From positions 1 through 32,701 of the forward strand of contig JALVIU010000206.1 of NCBI GenBank assembly GCA_027028665.1: a stretch of DNA of 32,701 nucleotides, written 5' to 3'. Of this stretch, positions 901 through 28,069 are shown piece by piece. The position numbers and the translations under genes were made by a program. The notes below the pieces were generated by a model. It had not been told where the DNA came from and made no database searches. It saw nothing but the letters and a program-made list of their open reading frames with translations. The number at the start of each line of letters is the position of its first letter. The stretch's first letter is position 1. Source of the stretch: Candidatus Atribacteria bacterium (GTDB lineage Bacteria > Atribacterota > JALVIU01).

Positions 901-1665
901 ATGAAAAAAGAAAATATAAATATACTTCCAGAGGGTGAACCCCTTTCCCATATAGGGGACAGTAATGTAGGTATTCTTTTTATCCATGGTTTTACCGGTA
1001 TGCCTGAGAGTATGAGAGATGTAGCTATTTATTTTGCAGATAAGGGATATCATGTGGAGCTTCCAAGGTTAAGGGGGCATGGTACAGATAACTGGAGGGC
1101 CCTAAAAGATGTGACATATAAGGATTGGGAAGAGGATGTAGATGAGGCCTTTCTTTCCCTTACAAAACGTGCAGATTCCCTGTTTGTGGTGGGCCTTTCT
1201 ATGGGTGGGACCCTTACACTATATCTTGCAGAGAAATATCCTGATGATGTAAAGGGCATAGTCCTCATAAACCCTGTAATATTTGTCCATGATAAGCTTG
1301 TGCGCTTTGTTCCTATTTTGAAATATATATTGCCTCCCCATCCAGGTATCGGTTCTGATATAAAGAAGGATGGGGTATTTGAGCCTGCATACAAAAAGTT
1401 TCCTGTGGATGCGGCGTATGAACTATTCAGACTTGTAGAACATGTGCGAAAAGACCTTAAAAAGGTGGTGGCCCCCCTTCTTATGGTGGCATCTGAACAT
1501 GATCACCTTGTGCCTGTGATTGATAAGAAGCATATATATGGAAATGTTTCATCTGAGGTAAAAGATATTATTGTACTTGAGGATTCTTATCACGTTGCTA
1601 CAATGGATAATGACAGGGAAAAAATCATAAAAGGAATAGAGGAGTGGATTCAAAAGAATAAATAA
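901..1665 (+). CDS. Alpha/beta-hydrolase carboxylesterase (Est30/YvaK-like, monoacylglycerol-lipase-like)
   Basis: 254 aa. Contains an HG oxyanion motif (LFIHGFTG), a GLSMGG nucleophile elbow (G-x-S-x-G) and a C-terminal DSYHVAT catalytic His region. AAGGGAGAAG SD lies upstream of the ATG at 901. Confidence 0.8.
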   Translation: MKKENINILPEGEPLSHIGDSNVGILFIHGFTGMPESMRDVAIYFADKGYHVELPRLRGHGTDNWRALKDVTYKDWEEDVDEAFLSLTKRADSLFVVGLSMGGTLTLYLAEKYPDDVKGIVLINPVIFVHDKLVRFVPILKYILPPHPGIGSDIKKDGVFEPAYKKFPVDAAYELFRLVEHVRKDLKKVVAPLLMVASEHDHLVPVIDKKHIYGNVSSEVKDIIVLEDSYHVATMDNDREKIIKGIEEWIQKNK

Positions 1666-1695
1666 AATTTTATTTATTTTTTTTGTATTTTTTTC

Positions 1696-1724
1696 TTGAC
1701 TTTTGGTTTTTTTATTTCTATAAT
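1696..1724 (+). promoter_or_regulatory. Near-consensus sigma-70-type promoter of the DUF2877-fdrA-arcC operon
   Basis: TTGACT (1696-1701), 17-nt spacer, TATAAT (1719-1724). Only 7 nt separate the -10 from the ATG at 1732. Confidence 0.55.
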
Positions 1725-1731
1725 TAAATTA

Positions 1732-2649
1732 ATGAAAAAAAAGGCCTATTTTTTCAGTAAAAAAAGTACAAACTTACTTGATGAGCTAAGATCTGGGGGA
1801 GAGGTGCATTCTGTTTTTGACACCTCTCTTAATATACTCATTCCCCCTTCCTCCTTCCTTACCCTTCTTGCAAAGAAAAAGGAGATCTATAGAAATCCTA
1901 TATCTATTGTAATAGATGTAGATTCTTTTAGAGGCTTGTCCATACTACCAGAAGACCCGGTGATCTATACAGGAGATACTATCATAATTGGAGATAAGAA
2001 ACTTATTATAGATACGAAAGATAGGATTACATGGGATGCCTCTTTTAGATATTTTGGCCCTCTTTTATCTCCTTCTTCAATTGAAAAAAATGTAGATACC
2101 CTGAAATTTTTTATTAAAATCATGAATTGGAACAAAGGGATGTTGCCCCTTGTTATAGAAGAATTTCCCCATAGCCACTATACACAAAAGGCAAAATTTG
2201 CAATAGAACGCCTAAGAAGGGAGGATATACTGTCTGAAGCCAGGCTTTCCTTTGTGGGAGAGGGACTTATAGGACTTGGGGATGGACTTACCCCATCTGG
2301 TGATGATTTTCTCTCCGGGTTTTTGGTGATCCTTTATTATTTTGCAAAATATTTGGATCTTGAAGATGTGATAGGGAAGAAGATAAAAGAGATACTTTCC
2401 CGGGTTTTTGTCCGTACAAACCTTTTAAGTGCTGTATTTCTTACCCTTGCAGGACAGGGATATGCCTTTTTCCTCCTAAGGGAGATTATAAAAGATCTCC
2501 TTGGACGAAGGGGATTTGATATGGAGAACATAAGAAATCTCATAGAGTATGGAGATTCATCTGGGGCAAGTATCCTTGCAGGTCTTATATTTGGGATTGA
2601 GTATACTTTAAGATATCTATACAGAGAAACCAAGGAGGTACTTGTATGA
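1732..2649 (+). CDS. DUF2877-family protein (YlbF/AllH-like subunit candidate)
   Basis: ORF-track frame 1696-2649. I place the start at ATG 1732 because the TTG at 1696 is the -35 hexamer. The GLIGLGDGLTPSGDDFLSGF motif resembles the DUF2877 signature as I remember it. A 4-nt ATGA overlap joins it to fdrA. It has the same partner set (FdrA, DUF1116, carbamate kinase) as E. coli ylbF. Confidence 0.6.
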   Translation: MKKKAYFFSKKSTNLLDELRSGGEVHSVFDTSLNILIPPSSFLTLLAKKKEIYRNPISIVIDVDSFRGLSILPEDPVIYTGDTIIIGDKKLIIDTKDRITWDASFRYFGPLLSPSSIEKNVDTLKFFIKIMNWNKGMLPLVIEEFPHSHYTQKAKFAIERLRREDILSEARLSFVGEGLIGLGDGLTPSGDDFLSGFLVILYYFAKYLDLEDVIGKKIKEILSRVFVRTNLLSAVFLTLAGQGYAFFLLREIIKDLLGRRGFDMENIRNLIEYGDSSGASILAGLIFGIEYTLRYLYRETKEVLV

Positions 2650-4202
2650 TAGTCAAGACACTGGTGAAGAAAAACGCGTATTATGATTCAGTAACACTTA
2701 TGATTATTACAAATGACATCAAAAAGCTCGATGGTGTGGAAGAGGTCCTTGTAGGTATGGGCACAGAGCATAATATAAGCCTTGCGAAAGACCTCGGGCT
2801 ATTCACAAAAGAGCTTGAAGATGTAACAGCAAATGACCTCATCATCTCCATGAAGGTAAAGGATGAGGGTGTATTTAGTGAAGCTGTTTCTAAAGTTGAA
2901 GAGCTTCTCTCGGCCAAGCAAGAGGAAGAAGAGAGTGAAGAGGTAAAACCACAATCTATCGATTCTGCAATGGATGCAAATCCCGATGCAAATCTTGTAC
3001 TTATCTCCGTTCCTGGCCAGTTTGCTGCAAGAGAGGCAAGAAAGGCACTTATGGGTGATAGGCATGTACATCTTTTCAGTGATAATGTCACCATTGAAGA
3101 GGAATTGGAGCTTAAAAAACTTGCTCATGAGAGAGGCCTATTAGTAATGGGTCCTGATTGTGGAACAGCCATTATAAATGGTGTTGCCCTTGCATTTGCA
3201 AATGTAGTTACAAAGGGACCTATTGGAATAGTTGCTGCATCTGGTACAGGTGCACAGGAGACATCTACTATTATTGCTAAAAATGGTAGTGGTATAACCC
3301 AGCTTATTGGGACAGGGGGAAGAGACCTTAAAGAAAGTATCGGTGGTATAATGATGATCGATGGTATAAAGGCGCTTGCCGAAGATCCTGATACAAAGGT
3401 AATACTGCTTGTTTCCAAGCCTCCTGCAGAATCTGTTGCAAGGAAGGTCCTTGAAGTGGCAAAGGATACAGGAAAGCCTGTTGTAGTACACTTTATTGGT
3501 GGTACAGCAGAGCTTGTAAGTGAATATGGACTTGTATTCTCTGAAAGTTTAGAGGATGCAGCGCTTAAGGCAGTGGCCCTTTCGAAAGGGGAAGCTCCGA
3601 AAGATGCACCAGAATTTTCTATACCTGAGGAAAAGGTGAAGGAGATAGTAGAGAAAGAAACCAAAGGTATGAAACCAGAGCAGAAGTATATAAGGGGACT
3701 TTACTCTGGAGGAACCCTTTGTGATGAGGCTATGTTGTTTATGACAAGGGAGTTTGGTGGTGTATACTCCAATGCGCCTTTATCTCCTGAATTTAAGCTG
3801 GAAGATTCATTGAAGAGCAAAGAACATACTGTAATTGACCTTGGTGAAGATGAGTTCACAGTGGGTAGGCCACATCCTATGATAGACTCTACTCTTCGTT
3901 CAGAAAGAATTATAGCTGAGGCAAAAGATCCAGAGGTTGCTGTAATCCTTCTTGATGTGGTATTGGGTTATGGTTCAAATCCGGATCCTGCAGGTTCCCT
4001 TCTGGATGCTATAAAGAAGGCAAAGAAAGAGGCAGATGCAGATGGTAGATATCTCTCCATTGTAGCATCTGTATGTGGAACAGAGGAAGATCCACAGCCA
4101 CTTTCTGAACAGGTAGCAAAGCTTGAAAGTGCTGGTGTTGTGGTGATGCCAAGCAATATACAAGCAGTGAGAATGGCTATGAAGATTGCGAAAAGGGGGT
4201 GA
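2646..4202 (+). CDS. fdrA: FdrA-family protein (SucD-like CoA-ligase fold; AllF-like)
   Basis: 518 aa. MIVKTLVKKNAYYDSVTLM, GPDCGTAIINGVALAFANV, GIVAASGTGAQE, IGTGGRDL, LVSKPP and EFTVGRPHPMID align with E. coli FdrA as I remember it. Confidence 0.85.
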   Translation: MIVKTLVKKNAYYDSVTLMIITNDIKKLDGVEEVLVGMGTEHNISLAKDLGLFTKELEDVTANDLIISMKVKDEGVFSEAVSKVEELLSAKQEEEESEEVKPQSIDSAMDANPDANLVLISVPGQFAAREARKALMGDRHVHLFSDNVTIEEELELKKLAHERGLLVMGPDCGTAIINGVALAFANVVTKGPIGIVAASGTGAQETSTIIAKNGSGITQLIGTGGRDLKESIGGIMMIDGIKALAEDPDTKVILLVSKPPAESVARKVLEVAKDTGKPVVVHFIGGTAELVSEYGLVFSESLEDAALKAVALSKGEAPKDAPEFSIPEEKVKEIVEKETKGMKPEQKYIRGLYSGGTLCDEAMLFMTREFGGVYSNAPLSPEFKLEDSLKSKEHTVIDLGEDEFTVGRPHPMIDSTLRSERIIAEAKDPEVAVILLDVVLGYGSNPDPAGSLLDAIKKAKKEADADGRYLSIVASVCGTEEDPQPLSEQVAKLESAGVVVMPSNIQAVRMAMKIAKRG

Positions 4203-4390
4203 TTACCATTTCTAAGATAAATGAGACCCTATTTGGGAAAAAGTTAAAGGTAATAAATCTTGGCCTTGAAAGCTTTGCAGAGGATCTGAAGAGGCAGGGT
4301 GTAAAGGTAGTAGAGGTAGATTGGAAGCCGCCTGCAAAGGGAAAGAAGGAACTTTTAGATCTGCTTGATAAATTAGAGGCTATTAAATAA
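4199..4390 (+). CDS. 63-aa protein resembling the C-terminal tail of long FdrA proteins
   Basis: The GTG start overlaps the fdrA TGA (GTGA). LKVINLGLESFAEDLKRQGVKVVEVDWKPPAKGKKELLDLLDKL aligns with the last roughly 45 residues of 555-aa E. coli FdrA (VAVINIGLRSFALELQ...VVHYQWSPVAGGNKKLARLLERLQ, from memory). It ends 10 nt before the DUF1116 gene. Confidence 0.5.
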   Translation: MITISKINETLFGKKLKVINLGLESFAEDLKRQGVKVVEVDWKPPAKGKKELLDLLDKLEAIK

Positions 4391-4400
4391 GGAGGCTATC

Positions 4401-5648
4401 ATGGCTATAAGTATTGAAAAGGCAAATAAAGAAGCCATAGAAAGGATGCAAAAGAGTCAGCCTACACTGGTAGGACTTGATATTGCTGGTAATGTTGTTC
4501 CCGGAATGAAAAAGAAGATGATCCTCCATGCAGGTCCACCTATTACATGGGATAGGATGTGTGGACCTTTGAAAGGAGCAGTAATTGGTGGTCTCATATA
4601 TGAAGGACTTGCAAAGAACGAAGAAGAGGCAATAGAGCTTGCATCATCTGGTGAGATAGAGTTTTCCCCATGGCATCACCACAATGGTGTGGGACCTATG
4701 GCAGGTGTTGCTACATATTCTATGCCTGTCTTTATTGTGGAAAATACCACTTATGGCAATAAGGCATATTGTACCATGAATGAAGGACTTGGAAAGGTGC
4801 TTCGTTATGGTGCATATGATGATGAAGTAATTTCGAGACTCAAATGGATGGAGGAAGAACTCTATCCTGTACTTCGTGATACATTGAAGCTTTCAGGTCC
4901 TATAAACCTTAAAAACCTCATTGCACAGGCACTTCAGATGGGTGATGAGTGTCATAACAGGAATAAGGCAGGTACATCTTTGTTTATAAGAGAGATTGCA
5001 CCATATCTTGTAGAGACAGATTATTCTGAAGAGGTAAAATCTCGTGTATTAAAGTTTATACATGGAAACGACCACTTCTTCCTGAATCTGTCTATGCCTG
5101 CAGGTAAGGCAACAACCCAGGCAGCAGAGTGGATAGAAGGGAGCACTATTGTGACTACTATGGCAAGAAATGGTACAGATTTTGGTATAAGGGTAAGCGG
5201 TCTTCCTGATCAGTGGTTTGTAGGTCCTGCCCTTCAGGTAAAGGGACTTTTGTTCCCTGGGTTTACAGATGATGATGCAAACCCAGATATTGGTGATAGT
5301 ACCATTACAGAGACTGCAGGATATGGTGGTTTTGCTATGGCATCTGCACCTGCTATTGTACAGTTTGTAGGTGGTACACCAAAGGATGCTATGAACTTTA
5401 CATTGAAGATGTATGAGATTACCGCAGCGGAAAATGAGACATATAAGGTACCATATCTCAATTTCCGTGGCACACCAACGGGAATAGATATAAGAAAGGT
5501 TATAGAAAAGGGTATACTTCCTCAGATAAATACAGGTATTGCTCATAAAAAACCAGGTGTTGGTCAGGTGGGTGCAGGCCTTGTAAATCCACCTGAAAAT
5601 ATATTTGAAGATGCTTTAAGGGCATTTGTTGAAAAATATGTGGGATAA
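4401..5648 (+). CDS. DUF1116 protein (YlbE/AllG-like)
   Basis: 415 aa. LHAGPP, VGPMAG, NEGLGKVLRYGAY, FFLNLSM, RNGTDFGIRVSGL, ANPDIGDSTITET and INTGIAHK match E. coli YlbE along the whole length (from memory). AAGGAGG SD upstream. Confidence 0.85.
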   Translation: MAISIEKANKEAIERMQKSQPTLVGLDIAGNVVPGMKKKMILHAGPPITWDRMCGPLKGAVIGGLIYEGLAKNEEEAIELASSGEIEFSPWHHHNGVGPMAGVATYSMPVFIVENTTYGNKAYCTMNEGLGKVLRYGAYDDEVISRLKWMEEELYPVLRDTLKLSGPINLKNLIAQALQMGDECHNRNKAGTSLFIREIAPYLVETDYSEEVKSRVLKFIHGNDHFFLNLSMPAGKATTQAAEWIEGSTIVTTMARNGTDFGIRVSGLPDQWFVGPALQVKGLLFPGFTDDDANPDIGDSTITETAGYGGFAMASAPAIVQFVGGTPKDAMNFTLKMYEITAAENETYKVPYLNFRGTPTGIDIRKVIEKGILPQINTGIAHKKPGVGQVGAGLVNPPENIFEDALRAFVEKYVG

Positions 5649-5663
5649 AGGAGAGATGTGAAG

Positions 5664-6611
5664 ATGGCAAGGATCGTTGTGGCACTGGGAGGAAATGCTA
5701 TACTGCAACCAGGGCAAAAGGGGACATATGAAGAACAACTTACAAATGTAAAGAATACAACTACACAGATTGCAAAGATGGTACAAGAGGGACATGAAGT
5801 AGTCATAACACATGGAAATGGACCACAGGTAGGTGCAATACTTTTGCAAAATGAAGCTGGAGAGAAGCTGTATAATGTACCATCTATGCCTATGGATGTG
5901 TGTGGTTCTGAGACTCAGGGTTTTATAGGTTATATGATACAGCAATCACTTATAAATGAGTTTGTAAAAGAAAATATTAAAAAACCTGTAGCAACAGTAG
6001 TTACCCAGGTTCTCGTAGATAAGGATGACCCTGCATTTTCTCATCCTACAAAACCTGTAGGCCCTTTCTATACAAAGGAAGAGGCAGAAAAGAGGCAGAA
6101 GGAGCACCCAAATGAGGTCTGGATAGAGGATGCAGGTAGGGGATATAGAAGAGTAGTCCCATCCCCTGACCCAAAGGCGATAGTAGAAAAAGATGCGGTA
6201 AACTGTCTTGTGGCAAATGGAAGTATAGTTATTGCATCAGGCGGCGGCGGCATTCCTGTAATAAAAGAAGTAGATGGTACATATAAAGGGGTAGAAGCAG
6301 TGATAGATAAAGATCTTGCAGGGGAGAGACTTGCACAAGAGGTGGGTGCAGATATATTACTCATTCTCACAGATGTACCAAATGCCTATATAAATTATAA
6401 AAAGGAAAATGAAAAGGCCCTTGGCGAAGTTAAAGTGGAAGAAATTGAAAAATATCAAGAAGAGGGCCATTTTAAGGCGGGAAGTATGGGGCCGAAGGTA
6501 AAGGCAGCCATTCGTTTTGTGAAAGACGGTGGCAAAATGGCTATTATTACAGCACTTGAGAAGGCAGTGGATGCACTTTCAGGTAAGGCAGGCACAAGAA
6601 TAGTCCCGTAA
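5664..6611 (+). CDS. arcC: Carbamate kinase
   Basis: N-terminus [14 protein letters not shown], plus [18 protein letters not shown] and [11 protein letters not shown] prefer ATG 5664, which lies 8 nt after the AAGGAGAG SD, over the track GTG at 5658. Confidence 0.9.
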
Positions 6612-6623
6612 TTTATAGAGAAA

Positions 6624-6640
6624 GGGGGCTTTATGCCCCC
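6624..6640. terminator. Bidirectional hairpin between convergent arcC and the ABC ATPase gene
   Basis: GGGGGC-TTTAT-GCCCCC stem-loop in the 69-nt gap between the two stop codons. Confidence 0.6.
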
Positions 6641-6680
6641 CCTCCTTTAATTAATAAGTCTATCTCCTATTAAGAAACAC

Positions 6681-7745
6681 CTATTCTTTTATAAAGTAAA
6701 GATCTCTGTTTAATACCTTTATTCCTACTTTTTCCCCTGCAGGGAATACTCCTTCCTCCATGGTATAATCCACGACAGAGAGCTCTCCCCATGGACTATC
6801 AAGAAGGTATTCTGCTATCTGTCCGAGATAGAAAGAGGTCTTAACAGTAGCTTCAACCCCTGTCTTTTCTTTGGTAAGTCTTATGCTTTCGGGTCGTATT
6901 ACTACTACCCCTTCTGTTCCAGGAGAGAATTCCTTATCTATATCAAATTCTATTTCAGTTCCTTCAAGTGCTATCTTTACCTTTCCATTATCGTATGATA
7001 CGACCTTTCCATTTACCAGATTGGCCTCTCCGATAAAGTCTGCAACAAACTTATTGGCGGGACGCCTGTAGAGGGTTTCAGCATCTCCGATCTGTTGGAT
7101 CTTACCCTGAGACATGACCACAATCATATCTGACATGGACATGGCCTCTGATTGGTCATGTGTTACATATACTGCAGTAATACCAAATTGTTGCTGTATA
7201 TTTCTTATTTCTCCACGCATCCTCCGTCTCAGTTTTGCATCGAGATTGGAAAGAGGCTCATCAAAGAGGATTACCTTTGGTCTTAGGATCAATGAACGTG
7301 CAAGTGCAACACGCTGTTGCTGTCCCCCTGAGAGCTCTCTTGGAGACCTATTTTCAAGACCAGAAAGACCCATAAGCTCCAGGATCTCTCGTACCATATC
7401 TTTTATCTCTTGTTCTTTATATCCTTTTATTTTAAGACCATATGCAATATTGTGATACACGGTAAGATGTGGGAAAAGTGCATAGGATTGGAAAACCATG
7501 GTAACATCTCTTTCATTTGCCAGGAGTCCTGTTACATCGTCATCACCGATAAATACCCTTCCTTTGGTTACCTCTTCAAGCCCTGCTATAATGCGAAGGG
7601 TAGTAGTTTTTCCACACCCTGAAGGCCCGAGGAGTGTATAAAACTTTCCTGCTTCGATCTCAAGGGTTATGCCATCTACTGCCTTTACATTCCCAAAATA
7701 TTTATATACATTATCCAAATAGACTCTTGATGCCTCTATTTTCAT
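6681..7745 (-). CDS. ABC importer ATP-binding protein (FbpC/AfuC/PotA-type with C-terminal TOBE-like domain)
   Basis: Walker [10 protein letters not shown], signature [13 protein letters not shown], Walker [10 protein letters not shown]-loop VTHD. About 110 aa of C-terminal regulatory domain. A 4-nt overlap joins it to the permease gene. Confidence 0.9.
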
Positions 7746-9757
7746 AAGCTAATCTCCTGTCTTACCCCAATTTTGTTTACCAGGGAGTACATGATAAGGA
7801 TAACCGCAAGTATAATAGCTATTAAAACTGTACTATATGCGGATGCAACCCCCAATGTACCTGCCTCTATACGATTTAAGATAACCACTGTTGCAACTCT
7901 TGTTCTTGCTGTGGTTAAGAATATAACTGCACTTATTGCTGTAATAGAACGTACAAATCCAAACACCCATCCTGAGACAATTGCAGGTTTTATAAGAGGA
8001 AATACTACCTTAAATAATGTATCTGAGTTTTTCCCTCCCAGTGTAGTAGATGCCTCTTCAAGGGATGGGTCAAGTTGTGAAAGTGAAGCAATACCTGATC
8101 GTATCCCCACAGGCATATATCTAAATATAAATGAAAGTATTACAATGGTTGCTGTACCTGTAAGCATAAGGGGATATCTATTAAATCCTATAAGATATCC
8201 TATACCAATAACGGTTCCTGGTATTGCAAAGGATAAAAGTGACGAAAATTCAAGATAACCTCTGCCCGGGAATCTTTGTCGTGTAATAAGGTATGAAATC
8301 ATTATGCCTATTGCGGCTGTGATAAATGCTGATATGAATGCAAACTTCATTGTAATCCACAATGTATCTGTGTATTCGTTGAAAAACCTTGCATAATGGG
8401 CAAAGGTGAATTTATTATTTATTCCCCAGAGTTTCACGAAACTACCATATATTACTGTACCGTATAGAATGGCTGTAAATGAGAACCATGCAACCATGAT
8501 TGTAGTAATTGTGGATTCAAATGTTTTGGGTAGAGGAATAAACCTTCCTCCTGCAGGCTTTCCTGTAACAGTTATATAGGATTTCTTACCAATCCAGTAT
8601 TGTTGCAATAGGAATATAAAGAGTGTTGATGCAAGAAGTACTATACCCAGTGTTGATGCAAGGGTTTCATCATATCTTCCTACTATACTAAAGTAAATTT
8701 CTGTGGCAAGTACGTCGTAGTCTCCACCAAGTACGATAGGGTTTCCAAAATCTGCCATGGATTCTATAGCTGTAAGTAAAAAGGAGTTGGCCACTCCTAT
8801 ACGCAAAAGGGGCCATACCACCTGGGTAAAGGTCTTCCATCTGTTTGCCCCTAATGTAGTAGATGCCTCTTCAAGAGAGGGGTCGAGGGATTTGATAAGC
8901 CCATCTAAGAGCATGTATGATATAGGAGCAAATGACAGAGTCTGGGCAAGTATAAGACCATTTAGACCAAATATTGCCTTTGTGTGTAGATGTAGTAAGG
9001 TTTTTGTTACAAATCCCTGTACGCCAAACATATATATAATTGCAAGACCTATAAGAAAAGGTGGTGTAATTATAGGTAATAAGGAGAAAACAGATATGAC
9101 CTTTCCTATCCACTTTATCCTGGATCTATTTGCCAAAAGGGCGAAAATAAATCCTAACAGAGTAGATGTTACCCCAACGATGGCTGCCAGGGTAAATGTA
9201 TGCCTTAGTACCCTGAAGAGCTGGAAGTATCCCTTTAAGGTGGTAATAAACTGCTTAGGTACCAAAACCCCATATTGTGTAGTGATACTCCTTATGAGTA
9301 TAACTATAAGAGGATAGACTATAAACATTGTTACAACAAGCATGGATACCCAGATAGACCAGGATAGAAATCTATCTCCCTTTATAAAGGAGATGTCAGA
9401 AAGAGAAAAGGCAAAAATAGAGTAAAAAATAGAGAATATTAACGTAGAGCCAAATCCGAACGCCTCTTCTTTAGTAGGTCCAAATACGAGATACACAGTA
9501 ATTGCTGCACCTAATACAGATATAATAAGAGAGATATATCCCTTTGCCTTTTTGTTTTTCAAAAACAGTGGAATAATAAATAGAAGTAGTAAAATACCAA
9601 CTACATAAAATAGAGGGATCCTTGTCCCATATTTTATTGCAGCCTTTGCGGGATCAAAAAAATGATAGAATTTTTTATCATAATTTGCCCATGGTAGGGC
9701 TATATAAGCATATAGCCCTACCAATAAGGAAATAAGTATTCCCTTATCCAGTTTCAT
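7742..9757 (-). CDS. Fused double-domain ABC permease (FbpB/AfuB/ThiP-type)
   Basis: 671 aa and highly hydrophobic. It has two EAA loops with the same core, LDPSLEEASTTLG (ANRW and GKNS variants), about 285 aa apart. This is an internal duplication typical of this permease family. Confidence 0.85.
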   Translation of the reverse strand: MKLDKGILISLLVGLYAYIALPWANYDKKFYHFFDPAKAAIKYGTRIPLFYVVGILLLLFIIPLFLKNKKAKGYISLIISVLGAAITVYLVFGPTKEEAFGFGSTLIFSIFYSIFAFSLSDISFIKGDRFLSWSIWVSMLVVTMFIVYPLIVILIRSITTQYGVLVPKQFITTLKGYFQLFRVLRHTFTLAAIVGVTSTLLGFIFALLANRSRIKWIGKVISVFSLLPIITPPFLIGLAIIYMFGVQGFVTKTLLHLHTKAIFGLNGLILAQTLSFAPISYMLLDGLIKSLDPSLEEASTTLGANRWKTFTQVVWPLLRIGVANSFLLTAIESMADFGNPIVLGGDYDVLATEIYFSIVGRYDETLASTLGIVLLASTLFIFLLQQYWIGKKSYITVTGKPAGGRFIPLPKTFESTITTIMVAWFSFTAILYGTVIYGSFVKLWGINNKFTFAHYARFFNEYTDTLWITMKFAFISAFITAAIGIMISYLITRQRFPGRGYLEFSSLLSFAIPGTVIGIGYLIGFNRYPLMLTGTATIVILSFIFRYMPVGIRSGIASLSQLDPSLEEASTTLGGKNSDTLFKVVFPLIKPAIVSGWVFGFVRSITAISAVIFLTTARTRVATVVILNRIEAGTLGVASAYSTVLIAIILAVILIMYSLVNKIGVRQEISL

Positions 9758-9758
9758 T

Positions 9759-10793
9759 TTACCTTGGTAAAGAGTATATCTCTTTTGTCCATTTATCTAC
9801 GATTTCTTTTCTGTGCTCTCCCGCCCACTTGAAATCGTATTTTATAAGTTTTACATCATCAAAGGATACACCATACTTCCTTATAACTTCAGGAAGAGGT
9901 GCTTTTTTGTTACTTGGAAGCTGATAAGATTCTGCCTTTGGTGCAAGTGCCTGGATATCTGGACGAAGTACAAAATCTACAAACTGCTTTGCAACCTGTG
10001 GATGTGGGCACCAGTTTATAATACTTAATCCACCGATCTCATAACCTGTTCCATCTGCAGGAGGAATAGGAACTATAGGATAACCCTGTTCTGCAAACTT
10101 AACTACATCGTGGAGGAAGATAATAGAGATTGCAATCTCTCCCTTTCCAGCCATAGGACCAGATGCAGCACCAGACTTTGTATAGACTGCAATGTTTTTA
10201 TGGAGTCTTGCAAGGTAGTCCCAACCTTTTTCCCATCCCATAAGCTGTAATATGGTAGAAAGTGTAGTAAATGCGGTACCTGAGGTATTTGGATTTGCCA
10301 TACCTATAAGGCCTTTGTAACATGGTTTTGTAAGATCTTCCCATACCTTTGGAATAGGAAGTCCTTTAGATTTTAAGAGCTCTACATTTACACCCCAGCC
10401 AAGAGGACCTGCATATAAACCCTTTACCATATAAGCAATAGCAGGGTTCTTTGCCCAATCTCTGAGCTCAGGGATCATTGGAGATGTTGGATATGGCTGT
10501 AATAATCCCTCAAGTGCTGCTTCATAGTGAGGGTCAAGGGTACCACCAAACCATACATCACCTTGAGGATTGTTCATCTCTGCTTTGATCTTTGCCAGGG
10601 TCTCACCGGAGGATCTTCTTGTCCAGTCAACAGGGATACCTGTTGCTTTGGTGAATTCATGTGCAACAAGTGCAACCCACTTCTCTGCAGGGCTACCATA
10701 AAGTACTAATCTCTTTTCCCCTGCAAATGCAGAAAATGAAAAGGCAAAAATCAAAAGTAATGAAACGAGTAAGAATACCTTAAAGGTACGCAT
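9759..10793 (-). CDS. Periplasmic substrate-binding protein, FbpA/AfuA family (copy 1, promoter-distal)
   Basis: 344 aa from ATG 10793, which has an AAAAGGAGGT SD; the track ORF extends to 10823. SPI signal MRTFKVFLLVSLLLIFAFSFSAFA. GETLAKIKAE, NPQGDVWFGGTLDPH, NPNTSGTAFT, YTKSG and GTGYEIGG resemble AfuA as I remember it. Confidence 0.8.
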   Translation of the reverse strand: MRTFKVFLLVSLLLIFAFSFSAFAGEKRLVLYGSPAEKWVALVAHEFTKATGIPVDWTRRSSGETLAKIKAEMNNPQGDVWFGGTLDPHYEAALEGLLQPYPTSPMIPELRDWAKNPAIAYMVKGLYAGPLGWGVNVELLKSKGLPIPKVWEDLTKPCYKGLIGMANPNTSGTAFTTLSTILQLMGWEKGWDYLARLHKNIAVYTKSGAASGPMAGKGEIAISIIFLHDVVKFAEQGYPIVPIPPADGTGYEIGGLSIINWCPHPQVAKQFVDFVLRPDIQALAPKAESYQLPSNKKAPLPEVIRKYGVSFDDVKLIKYDFKWAGEHRKEIVDKWTKEIYSLPR

Positions 10794-10828
10794 AATAAAA
10801 ACCTCCTTTTGTAATTTATTCATCTTTA

Positions 10829-10857
10829 ATTATACTTCTTGTGAAAATCTTTGTCAA
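10829..10857 (-). promoter_or_regulatory. Consensus promoter internal to the SBP tandem, driving copy 1 and the rest of the transporter operon
   Basis: On the minus strand: TTGACA (rc of 10852-10857), 17-nt spacer, TATAAT (rc of 10829-10834). Confidence 0.6.
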
Positions 10858-10891
10858 GGAGGTAACATGCCCTATTCTATTTTTTCTGTTG

Positions 10892-11926
10892 TTACCTTGG
10901 TAAAGAGTATATCTCTTTTGTCCACTTATCAAGTATCTCTTTTCTGTGCTCTCCCGCCCATTTGAAGTCGTATTTTATAAGTTTTACATCATCAAGAGAT
11001 ACCCCATATTTTGTCATAACAGGGGGAAGAGGTGCTTTTTTATTGCTTGGAACTTGATTTGCCTCTGCCTTTGGTGCAAGTGCCTGGATATCTGGACGAA
11101 GTACAAAATCTACAAACTGTTTTGCAACATGTGGATGCGGACACCAGTTTATAATACTTAATCCACCGATCTCATAACCTGTTCCATCTGCAGGAGGTGT
11201 AGGCTTTAGAGGATAACCTTTTTCTGCAAATTTTACTGCATCATCTAAGAAGATAATTGCAATAGCAATCTCTCCCTTTCCAGCCATAGGACCAGATGCT
11301 GAACCAGATTTTGTATAGACTGCGATGTTTTTATGCAGTTTTTTTAGATAATTCCAACCCTCATCCCAACCTTTTAATTGTAGAATAGTGGCGAGTGCAG
11401 TAAATGCGGTACCTGAAGTATTTGGATTTGCCATACCTATAAGGCCTTTGTAACATGGTTTTGTAAGATCATCCCATACCTTTGGAATAGGAAGTCCTTT
11501 GGACTTTAAAAGTTCTACATTTATGGCCCAACCAAGAGGTCCAGCATATAAACCCTTTACCATATAAGCAAAGGCTGGATTTTTTGCCCATTCCTTAAGT
11601 TGCGGAATCATTGGGGATGTTGGATATGGCCATAATAATCCCTCAAGTGCTGCTTCATAGTGAGGGTCAAGGGTACCACCAAACCATACATCACCTTGAG
11701 GATTGCTCATCTCTGCTTTAATCTTTGCCAGGGTCTCACCTGTAGATCTTCTTGTCCAGCTTACTGGAATGCCAGTTTGCTTCTGAAATTCCTGAGCAAT
11801 AAATGAGACCCAGGTTTCCTCAGAACTGCCGTAAAGTACAAGCCTTTTTTCCCCGGCAAGTGCAGAAATAGTAAACATGAAGATAAATGCTAAAAGAAAA
11901 ACTAAAAAGATTTTAAAAATACGCAT
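10892..11926 (-). CDS. Periplasmic substrate-binding protein, FbpA/AfuA family (copy 2, promoter-proximal)
   Basis: 344 aa. SPI signal MRIFKIFLVFLLAFIFMFTISALA. Aligns without gaps to copy 1. GGAGGGGG SD upstream. Confidence 0.8.
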   Translation of the reverse strand: MRIFKIFLVFLLAFIFMFTISALAGEKRLVLYGSSEETWVSFIAQEFQKQTGIPVSWTRRSTGETLAKIKAEMSNPQGDVWFGGTLDPHYEAALEGLLWPYPTSPMIPQLKEWAKNPAFAYMVKGLYAGPLGWAINVELLKSKGLPIPKVWDDLTKPCYKGLIGMANPNTSGTAFTALATILQLKGWDEGWNYLKKLHKNIAVYTKSGSASGPMAGKGEIAIAIIFLDDAVKFAEKGYPLKPTPPADGTGYEIGGLSIINWCPHPHVAKQFVDFVLRPDIQALAPKAEANQVPSNKKAPLPPVMTKYGVSLDDVKLIKYDFKWAGEHRKEILDKWTKEIYSLPR

Positions 11927-15217: not shown

Positions 15218-16693
15218 TTAGACATAGAGCCCTTTTGCCACCTCAAATGCCTTATCCCAGGATACCTTATGCTGTGAAGGTGTAAACTCTTCCATAGGAA
15301 ATGATGTACTCACTATAGCCCTTCCCTCTTTTAGATCTTTTATTAAACCTAAGGATATAGCTTGAACGAGGATATTTCCTATAGTAGTTGCCTCTTGGGG
15401 TCCTGTTATAACTCTTTTTCCTATGGCATCTGCTGTAAATTGTGAGAGTAGCCTATTCTTTATACCACCACCTACGATATGAAGAACTTCTATTTCCCTT
15501 TCTGTTATTTCTTCTAAGAGTTCAAATATGTATCGATACTTTAGGGCAAGGCCTTCAAGTACTATCCTTACAATACTTCCAAGGTCAGATGGTACCTTTT
15601 GTCCTGTCTTTTTGAGGTATTCTTTCACTGCATCTATCATGTCAGGAGGGTTAAAAAATATGGGGTTATCAGGATCTATGATACCAATAAATGGTTCTGC
15701 CTTTTTCGCAAGTTTTACCAATTCATCGTATGACTTTTCATCTCCCCTTTTCCCTGCAGAGCGCTTTATCCCCTGCATAAGCCATAGGCCCATTATATTT
15801 TTTAGAAGCCTTATATTTCCGAGTACACCACCTTCATTTGTAAAGTTATATTTATATGTTTTATTATTTATAATAGGTTTATCTATCTCTACTCCCATTA
15901 ATGACCATGTACCTGAACTGAGATATGCCCAATTTTCACCCTCTGCAGGCACAGAGGCTACTGCAGATGCGGTATCATGTCCTCCTGGTAATATAACAAT
16001 TCCAGAATTTATGCCGAGTTCTTTCTTAATATATGGAAGAGGTTCTCCCTGTTTTTCGCCTGCGGCCTTTATAGGTGGAAAGAGGTGTTTTGGTATCTCT
16101 AATGCATCTATGAGTTCCCAATGCCAATCGTTGTGTGTATAATCATATAACTGAGTAGTAGAAGCTATGGTAAACTCTACCTCCTTTTTCCCTGTGAGAA
16201 AGTAGGAAAATAGATTTGGCATCAAGATTAGTTTATCTGCAATCTCAAGCCCAGGGTCTTTATTTGTAACCATTGAAAAGAGCTGAAATATAGTATTAAG
16301 TTGCATAAATTGAATGCCTGTTTTAAAAAACACCTCTTTTCTGGGGATTATCTCAAATACTTTATCCATTATGTTATTTGTGCGAGAATCCCTATAGTGA
16401 TAAGGGTTTCCTATAATATTTCCCTGTCTATCCAGTAGACCAAAATCTACCCCCCATGTATCTATACCCAGTGAGGCCATTTTATCCCCATATGTAAGCT
16501 TAAACTTTAAAAGACCTTCCTTCATACTCTGAAACAGTCTTAGCACATCCCAAAATAGATGCCCGTTTACATATACAGGGATATTGGGAAATCTATGTAT
16601 CTCTTCTATTATTAGTCTATTTTCCTTTAATTTTCCTGCTACCAACCTTCCACTTTCTGCACCAAAATCAAAGGCAAGTATGTATTTATCCAT
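15218..16693 (-). CDS. rhaB: FGGY-family sugar kinase, rhamnulokinase (RhaB) subfamily
   Basis: 491 aa. FDFGAESGR, IHRFPN, IDTWGVDFGLLD, YHYRDSRT, GIQFMQLNTIFQL, YLSSGTWSLMG, NFTNEGG, LKNIMGLWL, LHIVGGG and GPQEATTIGN align with E. coli RhaB as I remember it. Confidence 0.75.
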   Translation of the reverse strand: MDKYILAFDFGAESGRLVAGKLKENRLIIEEIHRFPNIPVYVNGHLFWDVLRLFQSMKEGLLKFKLTYGDKMASLGIDTWGVDFGLLDRQGNIIGNPYHYRDSRTNNIMDKVFEIIPRKEVFFKTGIQFMQLNTIFQLFSMVTNKDPGLEIADKLILMPNLFSYFLTGKKEVEFTIASTTQLYDYTHNDWHWELIDALEIPKHLFPPIKAAGEKQGEPLPYIKKELGINSGIVILPGGHDTASAVASVPAEGENWAYLSSGTWSLMGVEIDKPIINNKTYKYNFTNEGGVLGNIRLLKNIMGLWLMQGIKRSAGKRGDEKSYDELVKLAKKAEPFIGIIDPDNPIFFNPPDMIDAVKEYLKKTGQKVPSDLGSIVRIVLEGLALKYRYIFELLEEITEREIEVLHIVGGGIKNRLLSQFTADAIGKRVITGPQEATTIGNILVQAISLGLIKDLKEGRAIVSTSFPMEEFTPSQHKVSWDKAFEVAKGLYV

Positions 16694-17995
16694 CTATTTT
16701 CCCTCCTTTGCTACAGGTATTACATATGGTCCTTCAGGGATAATGGCTATTTTTACATCATCTCCAAAGCTCTCTTTCGCAATAGTTATCCCCTCTTCTA
16801 TACTTTTTATCCTTTTTGTAAATGTAAGAGATTGATCATTATCTGAAAGAGAGGAATACATATATATCTTATCTGTCACCTTTAATACCTTTACAAGTTC
16901 TTCTACCTCCCATTGGTCAGGTACGAATTTTTCCATATCATATAGACGTTTGAGAAATTTATCATAATCTCCCATCTCTTTTAATTCTAAAAGTACATCT
17001 ACAAAATATTTGCTCCCAAGACCCTCACTGCATTCAGAAGCAATAATTACCATTCCCCCGGGTTCGAGGATATCCAGTGTACCCACAAGCCCTTTTACCG
17101 TCTGGTAATATGTTTTATCAAGGGGATATCCTGCTGATGTGGTGATCACCGCCTTTACCCTTTCATCTACCTCTATTGTAGAGTATTTCTTTGCAAATTC
17201 TACTCCCTTTAGATAGGCCTTTTTAAGGTCTCCTGTAAATATCCCCCCTATATTTCTCTCCTCATCTACCACTACATTTACAATAAAATCTACACCAGCA
17301 AGTTCTGCAATCTTTGTTGCACCTTCGTGGAATGGATTATCTTCTAATACAAGATTTCTTGCATTTTCTGATTCAAGTACATATGGGCTATGATAATATT
17401 TTACTGTCTCAAAAGAAGAGATGCCAGGAAGTACAGATTTTCTCCCCCCAGAAAATCCTGCCATAAAGTGTGGCTCTATGAGGCCTGTAAGGATTTTAAG
17501 TTCTGCATTTAAAAAGTATTTGTTTATGTATACATCTACATCCCCTGTTTTTCCCACATACCCCATATCATCCATATTCATTGCATTATGATTTATTATT
17601 CTGTAGCTGTTTGCAATCTCTTCTCCCACAAGTTCGATAAGTTCATCCCCTATATTTGGGCGGTGAATCCCTGTAGCAATTAAAATAGTGATTCCCTCTT
17701 TTTTTATACCTGCCTTTTCAAGGGTAGATAGTATAGGGGGTAATATAATTTTATTGGGTACAGGCCGTGTGATATCAGATATAACGATGGTTGCATTCCT
17801 TTTCCCTTTTGCAAGCTCTATGAGAGGAGGGCTTTCAATAGGGGAGGAGAGTGCCTGTTCTAAGGCCTTTGTAGGTTCTTCTACAATAGGCATCTCCCTT
17901 TTCCTTATTATCTTATATACATTCCTGGACGGGATAGAAAAATTAATACCTTCTTTTCCATATAGGAGTTTTATATCCATTATCCCCTCCTTCAT
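16694..17995 (-). CDS. larA: LarA-family nickel-pincer-nucleotide-dependent 2-hydroxyacid racemase/epimerase homologue (DUF2088)
   Basis: 433 aa. Equivalents of the L. plantarum LarA key residues are present: R77 (DITRP), H111 (ATGIHRP), H176 (EPH), K186 (SGGRK, codon 17438-17440), H202, and Y296-Q297-x3-K301 (YYQTVKG). The alternative ATG at 17980 has a stronger SD. Confidence 0.85.
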   Translation of the reverse strand: MKEGIMDIKLLYGKEGINFSIPSRNVYKIIRKREMPIVEEPTKALEQALSSPIESPPLIELAKGKRNATIVISDITRPVPNKIILPPILSTLEKAGIKKEGITILIATGIHRPNIGDELIELVGEEIANSYRIINHNAMNMDDMGYVGKTGDVDVYINKYFLNAELKILTGLIEPHFMAGFSGGRKSVLPGISSFETVKYYHSPYVLESENARNLVLEDNPFHEGATKIAELAGVDFIVNVVVDEERNIGGIFTGDLKKAYLKGVEFAKKYSTIEVDERVKAVITTSAGYPLDKTYYQTVKGLVGTLDILEPGGMVIIASECSEGLGSKYFVDVLLELKEMGDYDKFLKRLYDMEKFVPDQWEVEELVKVLKVTDKIYMYSSLSDNDQSLTFTKRIKSIEEGITIAKESFGDDVKIAIIPEGPYVIPVAKEGK

Positions 17996-18936
17996 TTTAT
18001 ATTTTTGAGATTTTCCATTACTTCATCACTCAATATACCAATCATTTCAAAACTCATAAGCAGGGCACCGCCTATAGGTGTAAGTACAGGTTCTCTAAGT
18101 TCAAAACCTAAGATTCTTAATTTTTCCTTGACTATCTTTTTATAATATGAAGATGTGAAAACTCCACCTGCATATGAGATATAGTCATCCTTTATCCCGC
18201 GTTTTACAGGTCCTACGCCCTTAAGGAGCTTTTCTATATTCTCTTCTATAATAGTTCTTGCTACAAAATCTCCTTTTTCTGCAGTGTTTATTACATGTGG
18301 AGCGAAAGAGGCCACCTTTTTTCTTCCTGCCTTTTTTATATAGAAAAAATTTACTACATCTGTGATGGTAGAAAGCCCAAAATGTTCTCTTAATGCTCCT
18401 TCGAGTGCTGTAGCAGGACCCATGCCCTCCCAATAGCTCATTACACTCCTTATGGCATCATACGATATACGAAAACCACTTCCCTCATCACCTAATAGAT
18501 GGCCCCATCCACCTGCCTTGTAGTGTTTTCTGTTTTCATCTATCCCTATTATCATAGAACCTGTGCCAGATAGTACAATCATACCCTTTTTCCTTCTACC
18601 TATTGCTCCAATAGTTGCTATGTAACAGTCATTTCGAACCTCTATTTTCTTTGATTTCACTACCTTTCCAAGCTCTTTGGCAAGATATATGTTCAATTCT
18701 CTTTCAAATCCAGCACCGCCAATTCCTGCAACTACTGCATCAAATTCTCTGTATTCAAAAGATGAGAGAGCTTCTTTTACTGAGTTTACCATTCCTTCTA
18801 CGCCTACTACAAGGTGATTTGATGGACCTCCCTTACCCTCATAAAGTAGGTTTCCCTTCTCATCTGTAACTGCCACCTTCGTTTTTGTGCCTCCACCATC
18901 TATTCCTAAGAACAAATTTAACCACTCCTTTCCCAA
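17992..18936 (-). CDS. BadF/BadG/BcrA/BcrD-type ASKHA ATPase (N-acetylglucosamine-kinase-like sugar kinase)
   Basis: LGIDGGGTKTK phosphate-1 motif, VLSGTGS and GGWGHLLGDEGSG. The likely true start is the TTG at 18915, 9 nt after an AAGGAG SD, rather than the track start at 18936. A 4-nt overlap joins it to larA. Confidence 0.75.
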   Translation of the reverse strand: MGKEWLNLFLGIDGGGTKTKVAVTDEKGNLLYEGKGGPSNHLVVGVEGMVNSVKEALSSFEYREFDAVVAGIGGAGFERELNIYLAKELGKVVKSKKIEVRNDCYIATIGAIGRRKKGMIVLSGTGSMIIGIDENRKHYKAGGWGHLLGDEGSGFRISYDAIRSVMSYWEGMGPATALEGALREHFGLSTITDVVNFFYIKKAGRKKVASFAPHVINTAEKGDFVARTIIEENIEKLLKGVGPVKRGIKDDYISYAGGVFTSSYYKKIVKEKLRILGFELREPVLTPIGGALLMSFEMIGILSDEVMENLKNIK

Positions 18937-25381: not shown

Positions 25382-26428
25382 ATGAAGAGGAAGATCGATC
25401 CTTATTTTGCCAGGACTCTTGTGTATGGTGGCGCGGTGCTTGGTGGAGGAGGCGGGGGAAATATCGAAGAAGGCCTGGAATTTATAGATGAGCTCTCCAG
25501 GTATAAAAATCCGCTTCTTTTATCTCCAGATGAGATAGATGATGGATATATAGTAACTGTTGCGATGGTAGGTGCTCCTTCTTCAAAAAAGAAGCTTTCC
25601 TCATCTATTATTATCTCTTCATTTGAATTCTTTAGAGAAAATTTCAAACAAGAAATATCAGGTATTATTACAAATGAAATGGGTCCATTTGCCTCTGTAA
25701 ATGGGCTCTTACAATCTGCCTTCACCCTGGTTCCAATTATTGATGCACCTGCAAATGGGAGGGCTCATCCCCTTTCTGCTATGGGAGCCATGGGCTTGAG
25801 CAAGTTAAAGAACTATGTATCTTATCAGTCAGGTGTAAGTGATCTCCTCAAAGTCTATGTAGAAGGAGATATAAACACCACCTCTCAACTTATGCGGAGT
25901 GCCTCTGTGGTTTCAGGGGGTATTATATCTATTACAAGAAACCCGGTAGATATTGGATATCTAAGGGAAAATGGTGCAGTAGGGGCTATAGATTTTACCC
26001 ATAAACTTGGAGATATCTGGCTAAGCAGGAAAGAGCCCATGGAGAAGATAGATGGGTGTATATCTTTCCTAAAAGGTAATAATCTGGGCAGGTTCTCTAT
26101 AGATAATGTAACCTTATCTCAGGAGGGTGGTTTTGATATAGGAAGAGTAACCTTTGGAGATTTTGAGCTTATCTTCTGGAATGAATACATGACCCTTGAG
26201 AAAAAGGGAATACGAATAGCTACATTTCCCGATCTTATTGTACTCTTTGATCCTTTGACAGGGCTTCCTCTTTCATCCTATGAACTCACAAAGGGACAGG
26301 AGATTGTGGCTTCATATACAAGCTATAAAAACATTATTCTTGGAAGTGGCATGAGGGATAAAACCCTTTTTGAATATACAGAAAAGGTCATAGGTAAGGA
26401 TCTTATAAGATACCTTGACCTATTTTAA
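25382..26428 (+). CDS. DUF917-like protein (function unknown)
   Basis: 348 aa. The glycine run VLGGGGGGN near the N-terminus and IIDAPANGRAHPLSAMG resemble the DUF917 signatures (GTGGGG ... DAD-x-GRA-x-PE) as I remember them. The assignment is tentative. Confidence 0.45.
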   Translation: MKRKIDPYFARTLVYGGAVLGGGGGGNIEEGLEFIDELSRYKNPLLLSPDEIDDGYIVTVAMVGAPSSKKKLSSSIIISSFEFFRENFKQEISGIITNEMGPFASVNGLLQSAFTLVPIIDAPANGRAHPLSAMGAMGLSKLKNYVSYQSGVSDLLKVYVEGDINTTSQLMRSASVVSGGIISITRNPVDIGYLRENGAVGAIDFTHKLGDIWLSRKEPMEKIDGCISFLKGNNLGRFSIDNVTLSQEGGFDIGRVTFGDFELIFWNEYMTLEKKGIRIATFPDLIVLFDPLTGLPLSSYELTKGQEIVASYTSYKNIILGSGMRDKTLFEYTEKVIGKDLIRYLDLF

Positions 26429-26446
26429 AGAAGGAGGTGTAGGTTT

Positions 26447-28033: not shown

Positions 28034-28036
28034 GAA

Positions 28037-28067
28037 ATAAATAAGGGGGGCTTCCCCCCTTATTTAT
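28037..28067 (+). terminator. Intra-operon hairpin after the SBP gene (partial terminator or mRNA stabiliser)
   Basis: 14-bp stem: ATAAATAAGGGGGG, loop CTT, CCCCCCTTATTTAT. It lies between the SBP stop (28033) and the permease start (28070). Confidence 0.45.
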
Positions 28068-28069
28068 AA

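Follow-up and report, generated by a model that had tools for sequence, protein, structure and literature searches.

A 32,701-nucleotide stretch of DNA from a Candidatus Atribacteria bacterium (assembly GCA_027028665.1, contig JALVIU010000206.1), referred to as the window, contains a six-gene unit at positions 901 to 6648 that encodes a lipase-like hydrolase, AllH, AllF, a 63-amino-acid peptide, AllG, and carbamate kinase. We think it fairly probable that this block specifies a phosphorolytic N-acylurea carbamoyltransferase coupled to carbamate kinase, which has lost its upstream catabolic steps and acts on a scavenged ureide. To judge from sequence comparisons, the enzyme belongs to a large clade linked to molybdenum (Mo) hydroxylases, here called clade M, and not to the clade of the Escherichia coli allantoin enzyme.

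Gene content and architecture of the block

The features of the block are as follows.

901 to 1665, plus strand: alpha/beta-hydrolase, 254 amino acids, first gene of the block (Pfam Hydrolase_4, 4e-27)
1652 to 1683, no strand: A+T-only palindrome with T-run (inverted repeat, 16-nucleotide arms, 94% complementary)
1696 to 1724, plus strand: sigma-70-type promoter, TTGACT-17 nucleotides-TATAAT (11 of 12 consensus matches)
1732 to 2649, plus strand: AllH/DUF2877 subunit, 305 amino acids (PF11392, 1.1e-19)
2646 to 4202, plus strand: AllF/FdrA subunit, 518 amino acids (NF004760, 549 bits)
4199 to 4390, plus strand: 63-amino-acid mini-protein (FdrA profile positions 508 to 554)
4401 to 5648, plus strand: AllG/DUF1116 subunit, 415 amino acids (PF06545, 8.5e-102)
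5664 to 6611, plus strand: carbamate kinase, 315 amino acids (TIGR00746 arcC, 451 bits)
6624 to 6640, no strand: G+C hairpin GGGGGC-TTTAT-GCCCCC, where arcC and the ABC-ATPase gene converge

An initial annotation, made from the letters and their open reading frames (ORFs), had described five co-directional, translationally coupled genes for DUF2877, FdrA, a 63-amino-acid ORF, DUF1116, and carbamate kinase. This description is borne out by the five ORFs between 1696 and 6611, all on the plus strand and at or near the positions assigned to them, by their profile matches, and by ATGA and GTGA overlaps. Three AllFGH-type subunits are thus encoded together, scoring 549 bits against NF004760, 339.6 bits against PF06545, and 71.5 bits against PF11392, for which the family cut-offs are 433, 27, and 25 bits, respectively. 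Residues 5 to 316 of the carbamate kinase align with positions 2 to 308 of the 309 in TIGR00746 at 451.3 bits (cut-off, 358.25). Identity to the E. coli counterparts is 40% for AllF (FdrA), 45% for AllG (YlbE), 41% for the kinase (AllK/YbcF), and 31% over the C-terminal 110 amino acids of AllH (YlbF). Structural homologues in the PDB were found for AllF (3DMY, 1.3e-92; CoA_binding and Ligase_CoA domains) and for AllG (3CLQ, 1.3e-140, solved but uncharacterized). AllG is the most conserved component, with 61 to 77% identity to relatives in many phyla.

Comparison with related loci delimits the unit. In a blastn comparison with locus L097, homology extends from position 900, at the hydrolase start codon, to 6648, just past the terminator, with none outside. 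In L097, genes for a transposase and for a PDDEXK protein precede the block, and dnaG-rpoD follows it; in three metagenome-assembled genomes (MAGs; L098 to L100) it also lies beside dnaG-rpoD, with an upstream flank that is different again, and in an 88% relative (L091) an aldo-keto reductase is found upstream. By these alignments the block is portable, as had been proposed, since it is found, with sharply bounded homology, in no fewer than three or four distinct genomic settings. MAGs with the block include GCA_054005955.1, GCA_027024605.1, and GCA_026991775.1 and, among relatives, GCA_054020355.1 and GCA_053994595.1. The Transposase_mut and PDDEXK_9 genes of L097 (49 to 2285) are found upstream at a distance of about 1 kb from the six-gene block, a position that would fit its recent relocation. 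A transposase close to the block was seen in L097 only, among the loci compared, and no convincing terminal repeats marking a mobile element were found at the block ends. Identity to L097 is 97% for AllG, 92% for AllF, 92% for the 63-amino-acid tail, 90% for ArcC, 77% for the hydrolase, and 60% for AllH, which evolves much faster than its partners.

The same comparison bears on the hydrolase at 901 to 1665, a homologue of thermostable monoacylglycerol lipases of the LipS type (PDB 7e04, 1.8e-55; 3rli, 3e-49). The cassette had been described as flanked by an esterase and an unrelated ABC importer. For the esterase this cannot be kept: its gene lies directly upstream of allH in L091, L097, and L098 to L100, and because it stays with the block under such different flanks it belongs to the conserved unit. 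The idea that it is an unrelated neighbor was rejected on this synteny. No homologue of the hydrolase was found in the 80 clade-M loci described below.

Translational coupling runs through the operon. At the allH-allF junction, stop and start codons share the sequence ATGA, preceded by AGGAGG at 7 nucleotides, and the allF stop overlaps the start of the 63-amino-acid ORF as GTGA. From this ORF to allG, which is in another frame, there is a 10-nucleotide spacer with a GGAGG Shine-Dalgarno (SD) sequence, and 15 nucleotides, likewise with an SD sequence, separate the allG stop from the arcC start. The better start for arcC is ATG 5664, preceded by AGGAGA at 9 nucleotides, and gene callers also give a protein of 315 amino acids; GTG 5658 was discarded as a start, as the SD sequence would be too close.

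As first noted, the cassette is equipped with a promoter and a terminator of its own, and both are conserved in relatives. No promoter-like site in 7 kb scores better than the one at 1696 to 1724, and its two hexamers, their spacing, and an ATG 7 nucleotides after the −10 box are invariant in four aligned related loci from different samples. The start of the DUF2877 gene had been placed at TTG 1696, but this TTG opens the −35 hexamer; the conserved start is ATG 1732, and the 317-amino-acid ORF that begins at 1696 is an over-extension (the L091 orthologue of AllH has 302 amino acids, compared with 305 here). Because no space is left for an SD sequence between the −10 box and ATG 1732, allH is probably leaderless. 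At the other end, L097 and L091 carry a hairpin at the equivalent spot 3′ of arcC, with a different sequence and compensatory changes, and the hairpin at 6624 to 6640 is the predicted intrinsic terminator and right end of the block.

The 66-nucleotide spacer between the hydrolase gene and allH is 89% identical to that of L091, while the flanking genes are 62 to 70% identical at the DNA level. The intergenic region from 1652 to 1731 is more conserved than the surrounding coding DNA, and the block contains no regulator gene. This conservation upstream of allH suggests a binding site for a regulator. The palindrome at 1652 to 1683 is kept in L091, L097, and L098 and could weakly terminate transcription of the hydrolase gene, serve as an operator, or do both. 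Rfam and tRNA scans of the window returned no matches.

The 63-amino-acid ORF, previously listed without a name, is a real gene and can now be identified as a split-off AllF tail or AllG head. It matches positions 508 to 554 of the 555-position FdrA profile (E = 1.8e-10) and is 43% identical to residues 509 to 555 of E. coli FdrA, and the same module forms the N-terminal ~50 residues of the 465- to 478-amino-acid AllG of Thermosipho, Marinitoga, and others. Across the window, L020, L038, L050, and other loci, it takes four forms: a free protein of 54 to 100 amino acids, the AllF C terminus, the AllG N terminus, or the middle of an F-tail-G fusion. Among 72 related loci, the module is fused to AllG in 48, stands alone in 21, and lies within F-tail-G fusions of ~1050 amino acids in 3. 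Relatives recovered from 1.84 billion representative proteins number 784, and among the 150 best of them 117 have at most 100 amino acids. No Pfam family was matched by the module. In a model of the fused form, it folds as a beta-alpha-beta-alpha mini-domain, with moderate confidence (predicted local distance difference test [pLDDT] of 75.8 for the whole model). A sequencing error or pseudogene was considered and rejected: the split ORF is identical in six independent assemblies of the species and lies in a frame other than that of allG, which has an SD sequence of its own, and free-standing copies occur at 21 of the 72 loci and among hundreds of database proteins. Because the module is attached to AllF, to AllG, or to both across organisms, we infer that it docks AllF to AllG.

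AllF had been described as a SucD-like protein that lacks a GHAGA-type phosphohistidine loop, and hhalign and a motif search agree. Residues 100 to 288 align with SucD 52 to 239 at a probability of 97%, in a match that ends before the GHAGA loop and His246, and no GHAG(A) motif occurs among the 518 residues, which include seven histidines in total. E. coli FdrA likewise has no GHAGA loop, so its absence, on this comparison, is a trait of the FdrA family and not a peculiarity of this locus. H410, within a GRPHPM motif, is the sole invariant histidine in 58 FdrA-family sequences. A phosphohistidine equivalent in the second Ligase_CoA-type domain was also considered; the hhalign match of this domain to SucD or SucC is not significant (probability below 1%), and no residue equivalence is claimed. 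No block protein matched an ATP-grasp family, and no Pfam match to OTCace_N or OTCace domains occurred among the window ORFs scanned.

AllH carries the invariant motif G181xG183xG185LTPSGDD192. Its AlphaFold2 model (pLDDT, 92.7) consists of an N-terminal beta domain and a helical bundle that bears the GxGxGLTPSGDD motif. Despite this confident model, no fold relative was found in the PDB by sequence or by Foldseek, for which the best E value was 0.12. The length of AllH varies from ~210 to 224 amino acids in Thermotogae clusters to 271 in E. coli and 305 here.

Membership in the molybdenum hydroxylase-linked clade

The initial annotation had treated E. coli fdrA-ylbE-ylbF as the homologue of the cassette. 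The protein families are indeed homologous, at identities of 40 to 45%, but the block sits in a separate and much larger clade. Clade M was sampled by scanning one genome per GTDB species with an AllG alignment, which gave 80 listed loci at 61 to 75% identity; counts below refer to these 80. They come from Thermotogota, Bacillota, Spirochaetota, Chloroflexota, Riflebacteria, and other phyla, and the source species of the window is not one of them. Wherever present, AllF (76 of 80) and the tail (73 of 80) precede AllG, and AllH is found at 47 loci. The comparative neighborhood analysis that had been proposed for such cassettes finds usual partners other than carbamate kinase or allantoin genes, namely a Mo hydroxylase, a uracil-type permease, and a cyclase. 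The large, FAD, and 2Fe-2S subunits of a hydroxylase of the xanthine dehydrogenase (XDH) family, recognized by MoCoBD, FAD_binding_5, and Fer2_2 domains, are present at 44, 42, and 37 loci, respectively, and a PF04199 cyclase-family amidohydrolase directly follows allG at 51. An NCS2 permease occurs at 29 loci and scores higher as a uracil permease (275 bits) or RutG (270 bits) than as a xanthine permease (198 bits). A tblastn search with E. coli allB, allC, allD, allE, and allA found no match at E ≤ 1e-6 at any of the 80 loci; a single ORF-level blastp match to AllB at one locus was not reproduced.

Other neighbors recur at lower frequency: a protein of ~230 amino acids with a borderline GNAT match (26 loci), a thiolase-like protein (24) with a DUF35/ChsH2 partner (19), PucR regulators (11), a family III CoA-transferase (10), and an amidase-signature enzyme (10). 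Several loci carry a biotin-dependent decarboxylase set of the Na+ type (Carboxyl_trans, OAD_gamma, Biotin_lipoyl, and OAD_beta). The back ends of the clusters are thus variable, consisting of the GNAT-like protein with thiolase and DUF35, of amidase with family III CoA-transferase, or of a biotin/Na+ decarboxylase of the (methyl)malonyl-CoA type. The conserved Mo-hydroxylase cluster spans many anaerobic phyla (L008 to L087, L088, L089, and L093), and isolates with a full cluster include Alkaliphilus transvaalensis, Anaerocolumna aminovalerica, Clostridium rhizosphaerae, Flavonifractor porci, and Marinitoga arctica. Four full clusters have arcC inside them (L021, L033, L050, and L070).

Three lines of evidence place the window enzyme in clade M. 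A neighbor-joining tree places the window with L091 as the sister group of Thermotogae loci in which the cluster is complete, and E. coli forms a long-branch outgroup; Thermosipho L088 and a 77% relative, L093, both have the full Mo-hydroxylase cluster. The window proteins have the clade-M residue at 20 of 20 AllG and 7 of 8 AllF signature positions, defined as at least 95% conserved in clade M and different in E. coli. In both comparisons, the allantoin type is represented by one sequence, that of E. coli. The window gene order, H-F-(t)-G, is also that of the clade. On these data, the window enzyme is assigned to clade M and not to the E. coli allantoin clade. Seen across the 80 loci, the comparison shows the E. 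coli enzyme as an outlier of a much larger family, distributed over anaerobic phyla and nearly always accompanied by a Mo hydroxylase and a uracil-type permease.

The XDH-family hydroxylase and the PF04199 cyclase are absent from the window and from the extended scaffold. The window block would thus be a reduced and re-wired member of clade M in which arcC was retained or gained and a lipase-like partner was added. We found no paper on the Mo-hydroxylase/cyclase/FdrA cluster or on an anaerobic barbiturate/ureidomalonate route.

Reaction, substrate, and alternative interpretations

In the scheme that we favor, AllH, AllF, the 63-amino-acid peptide, and AllG would assemble into an AllFGH-type carbamoyltransferase. 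By analogy with the E. coli system, this complex would use phosphate to split an N-acylurea (R-CO-NH-CO-NH2) at its carbamoyl-N bond, yielding carbamoyl phosphate and the amide R-CO-NH2, and carbamate kinase would then convert carbamoyl phosphate and ADP to ATP, NH3, and CO2. The hydroxylase, the permease, and the ring-opening amidohydrolase of the upstream steps would have disappeared from this lineage, and arcC would have been retained or newly gained. With these steps lost, the ureide is most likely taken up ready-made or freed by the lipase-like hydrolase. Candidate substrates are oxalurate, speculatively ureidomalonate, or another N-acylurea that the hydrolase would free. The gene arcC is in the same transcription unit here and at five related loci (L091 and L097 to L100). 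Its presence in the operon at these six loci, and in the four full clade-M clusters noted above, is the main evidence that enzymes of this clade also make carbamoyl phosphate.

Several observations weigh against this scheme. Across the clade, arcC lies within 10 kb at only 7 of the 80 listed loci, which makes it uncertain that clade-M enzymes yield carbamoyl phosphate; the chemistry of clade M is predicted from homology to the E. coli enzyme, whose published assay followed synthesis and no other direction and gave an oxamate Km of 36.9 mM (PMC11326118). The conserved block has no transporter gene through which a ureide would enter. As for the hydrolase, its nearest matches are ordinary monoacylglycerol lipases, and it may be no more than a passenger. 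Finally, the survey covered only ~62 kb of the scaffold, and upstream genes may exist elsewhere in the genome.

One alternative is that the block is an ordinary oxamate carbamoyltransferase with its kinase (AllFGHK), using oxalurate produced by a pathway elsewhere in the genome or by community members. This is the only activity demonstrated in the family (PMC11326118), the four components are of the same kinds, kinase included, and allFGHK genes without upstream purine genes have been read as a sign of cross-fed oxalurate use (PMC12625717). Yet identity to E. coli is only 40 to 45%, the enzyme nests in a clade in which none of the 80 listed loci has allB, allC, allD, or allE neighbors, and 20 of 20 clade-specific AllG residues differ from those of E. 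coli. Neither the ~62 kb of scaffold nor the flanks of L091 and L097 to L100 contain allantoin genes. We regard this alternative as rather unlikely. A biosynthetic direction, in which carbamate kinase would serve as a carbamoyl-phosphate synthetase and AllHFG would carbamoylate an amide to an N-acylurea, has precedent in the carbamate kinase-like carbamoyl-phosphate synthetase of hyperthermophilic archaea, which makes carbamoyl phosphate. Measurements on the E. coli enzyme followed just this direction, and the operon lacks both a transporter and upstream catabolic genes. Its probability nevertheless seems very small, as the neighbors in the clade are catabolic (nucleobase permease, Mo hydroxylase, amidase, CoA-transferase, decarboxylases, and PucR), arcC scores as the catabolic equivalog, and the block has no biosynthetic tailoring genes.

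The CoA_binding and Ligase_CoA domains of FdrA raise another interpretation, that FdrA and DUF1116 act like an NDP (nucleoside diphosphate)-forming acyl-CoA synthetase or in CoA-dependent acyl transfer from an N-acylurea or acid to acyl-CoA, with carbamate kinase loosely associated. Clade-M clusters are rich in CoA-related genes, including thiolase/DUF35, family III CoA-transferase, and biotin-dependent (methyl)malonyl-CoA decarboxylase. The block, however, has neither a phosphohistidine loop nor an ATP-grasp partner, the published assay of E. coli AllFGH needs neither CoA nor nucleotide, and arcC is translationally linked here and at five related loci; we consider this reading highly improbable. 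A more specific proposal concerns the substrate class. Clade M might represent an anaerobic oxidative pyrimidine pathway, in which a Mo hydroxylase would convert uracil or thymine to (methyl)barbiturate, the cyclase-family amidohydrolase would open the ring to give ureidomalonate, and AllFGH would yield carbamoyl phosphate, the source of ATP, and malonamate, which would proceed through malonyl-CoA to acetyl-CoA. Ureidomalonate (malonylurea) is the CH2-homologue of oxalurate, and an aerobic barbiturase/ureidomalonase pathway is established. The presence of a uracil-type permease, an amidase, a CoA-transferase of the dicarboxylate type, and decarboxylases of the (methyl)malonyl-CoA type would be accounted for by such a route. 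The window block would then be a mobile, stripped-down scavenging module from ureidomalonate or another N-acylurea to ATP, in which the hydrolase replaces the ring-opening or amide-cleaving step. We offer this proposal as a doubtful one.

Membership in clade M provides a concrete lead on the substrate class, and the widespread, conserved cluster, which has no assigned pathway, is a more interesting lead than the window block itself. If clade-M enzymes also release carbamoyl phosphate, a widespread form of substrate-level phosphorylation from nucleobases would have been overlooked. To our knowledge, AllFGH is the only transcarbamylase that acts on an amide nitrogen, and no mechanism has been solved. 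The window contains the smallest natural version of the system, five proteins and a hydrolase with one promoter and one terminator, and would lend itself well to expression, to substrate screening, and to structural work on the F-G-H complex with its 63-amino-acid connector.

Genomic surroundings and comparison with known systems

The surroundings were surveyed by Pfam scans of window ORFs of at least 110 amino acids and of genes called on the scaffold from about −10 kb to +42 kb, which covers ~62 kb of its 110.5 kb. The absence of ureide genes reported for the 32-kb stretch holds in these scans and extends further: no allantoinase, allantoate amidohydrolase, ureidoglycolate dehydrogenase, XDH, or PF04199 cyclase was found in the ~62 kb of scaffold. 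Neighbors in the window include an AEC-family transporter, an aldo-keto reductase, a ferritin, CheW, UxaC, and other unrelated genes. The scaffold extension adds NicX, DUF1177, AroM, sugar enzymes, further ABC transporters, and an NADH-dependent oxidoreductase. The only close relative with a name that was found for a window protein is a CheW, clustered at 90% or more and labeled Candidatus Atribacteria. The best named matches to the window UxaC and AllG are from Thermotogota, at 63 to 75% identity, and because its closest named relatives are Thermotogae the source lineage is probably thermophile-like.

Convergent with arcC, an ABC importer occupies 6681 to 11926 on the minus strand and comprises an ATPase of the PotA/PhnT2/ferric type, a 671-amino-acid fused double permease, and two paralogous binding proteins. 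As relatives do not have this importer beside the block, it is probably unrelated to it, in line with the earlier description. Further along the minus strand, a co-directional group at 15218 to 18936 encodes a BadF/BcrA-type ATPase, a LarA-like protein of the lactate-racemase family, and an FGGY sugar kinase, and may be a module for epimerization and phosphorylation of a sugar acid. A third cluster, 19 kb from the cassette (25382 to 31866, continued at 10967 to 13552 of L095), encodes an S-Me-THD-like protein (DUF917) and a Dpp/Opp-type ABC importer followed by NicX, DUF1177, and AroM, the last resembling Asp/Glu/hydantoin racemases. In gene content it looks like a system for the uptake and conversion of a small nitrogenous compound, possibly hydantoin-like.

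Among known systems, the functional reference is that of E. coli, where allFGH encodes an oxamic transcarbamylase, forms an operon with the carbamate kinase gene allK, and lies directly beside allECD (PMC11326118); ybcF/allK is a catabolic carbamate kinase (PMC9843812). Both reports agree with what the initial annotation had stated about fdrA-ylbE-ylbF and its kinase. The two systems share the three enzyme families and carbamate kinase in one operon, the loop-less FdrA, the ~50-amino-acid module, and the presumed chemistry, from N-acylurea and phosphate through carbamoyl phosphate to ATP. They differ in gene order, which is H-F-t-G-K here and F-G-H-K in E. coli, in sequence (40 to 45% identity, and 31% for AllH), and in the tail, a separate 63-amino-acid protein here and the AllF C terminus in E. 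coli. The block also has no allECD or allB neighbors, includes the lipase-like hydrolase, and falls in the other clade.

The closest relatives in sequence are the clade-M clusters of Thermosipho (L088), Alkaliphilus transvaalensis (L045), Anaerocolumna aminovalerica (L068), and Clostridium rhizosphaerae (L064), with AllG identities of 61 to 77%. The window block shares with clade-M clusters the H-F-(t)-G order, the signature residues, free tails (21 of 72 loci), and an occasional internal arcC. In contrast to them, it lacks the XDH-type hydroxylase, the uracil-type permease, the PF04199 cyclase, and the GNAT-like protein, as well as the thiolase/DUF35, the amidase/CoA-transferase pair, and the decarboxylase, and has arcC and the lipase-like hydrolase instead.

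A cassette without upstream purine genes is not unprecedented, as allFGHK without upstream purine or allantoin genes was reported in 2025 in MAGs of ammonia-oxidizing archaea and comammox Nitrospira and read as scavenging of ureides that other organisms make (PMC12625717). The window block shares this gene content, but the nitrifier cassettes adjoin biuret- and triuret-hydrolase genes in aerobes (PMC12625717), whereas the host of the block is a fermentative anaerobe of the Thermotogae/Atribacteria-like kind, and the block itself has a lipase-like partner and an affinity to clade M. A more distant comparison is with the alpha subunit of succinyl-CoA synthetase and the NDP-forming acyl-CoA synthetases, which share the SucD-like scaffold and the CoA_binding and Ligase_CoA domains. 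Relative to the succinyl-CoA synthetase alpha subunit, AllF lacks the GHAGA loop and an ATP-grasp beta subunit and carries, in addition, an HMA-like domain at its N terminus and another domain of the Ligase_CoA type. Overall, the components of the block and its presumed chemistry are known; what is new is the portable six-gene architecture, with its probably leaderless promoter, putative shuffled docking module of 63 amino acids, and lipase-like partner, and, above all, its placement in the large Mo-hydroxylase-linked clade and not with the allantoin enzyme.

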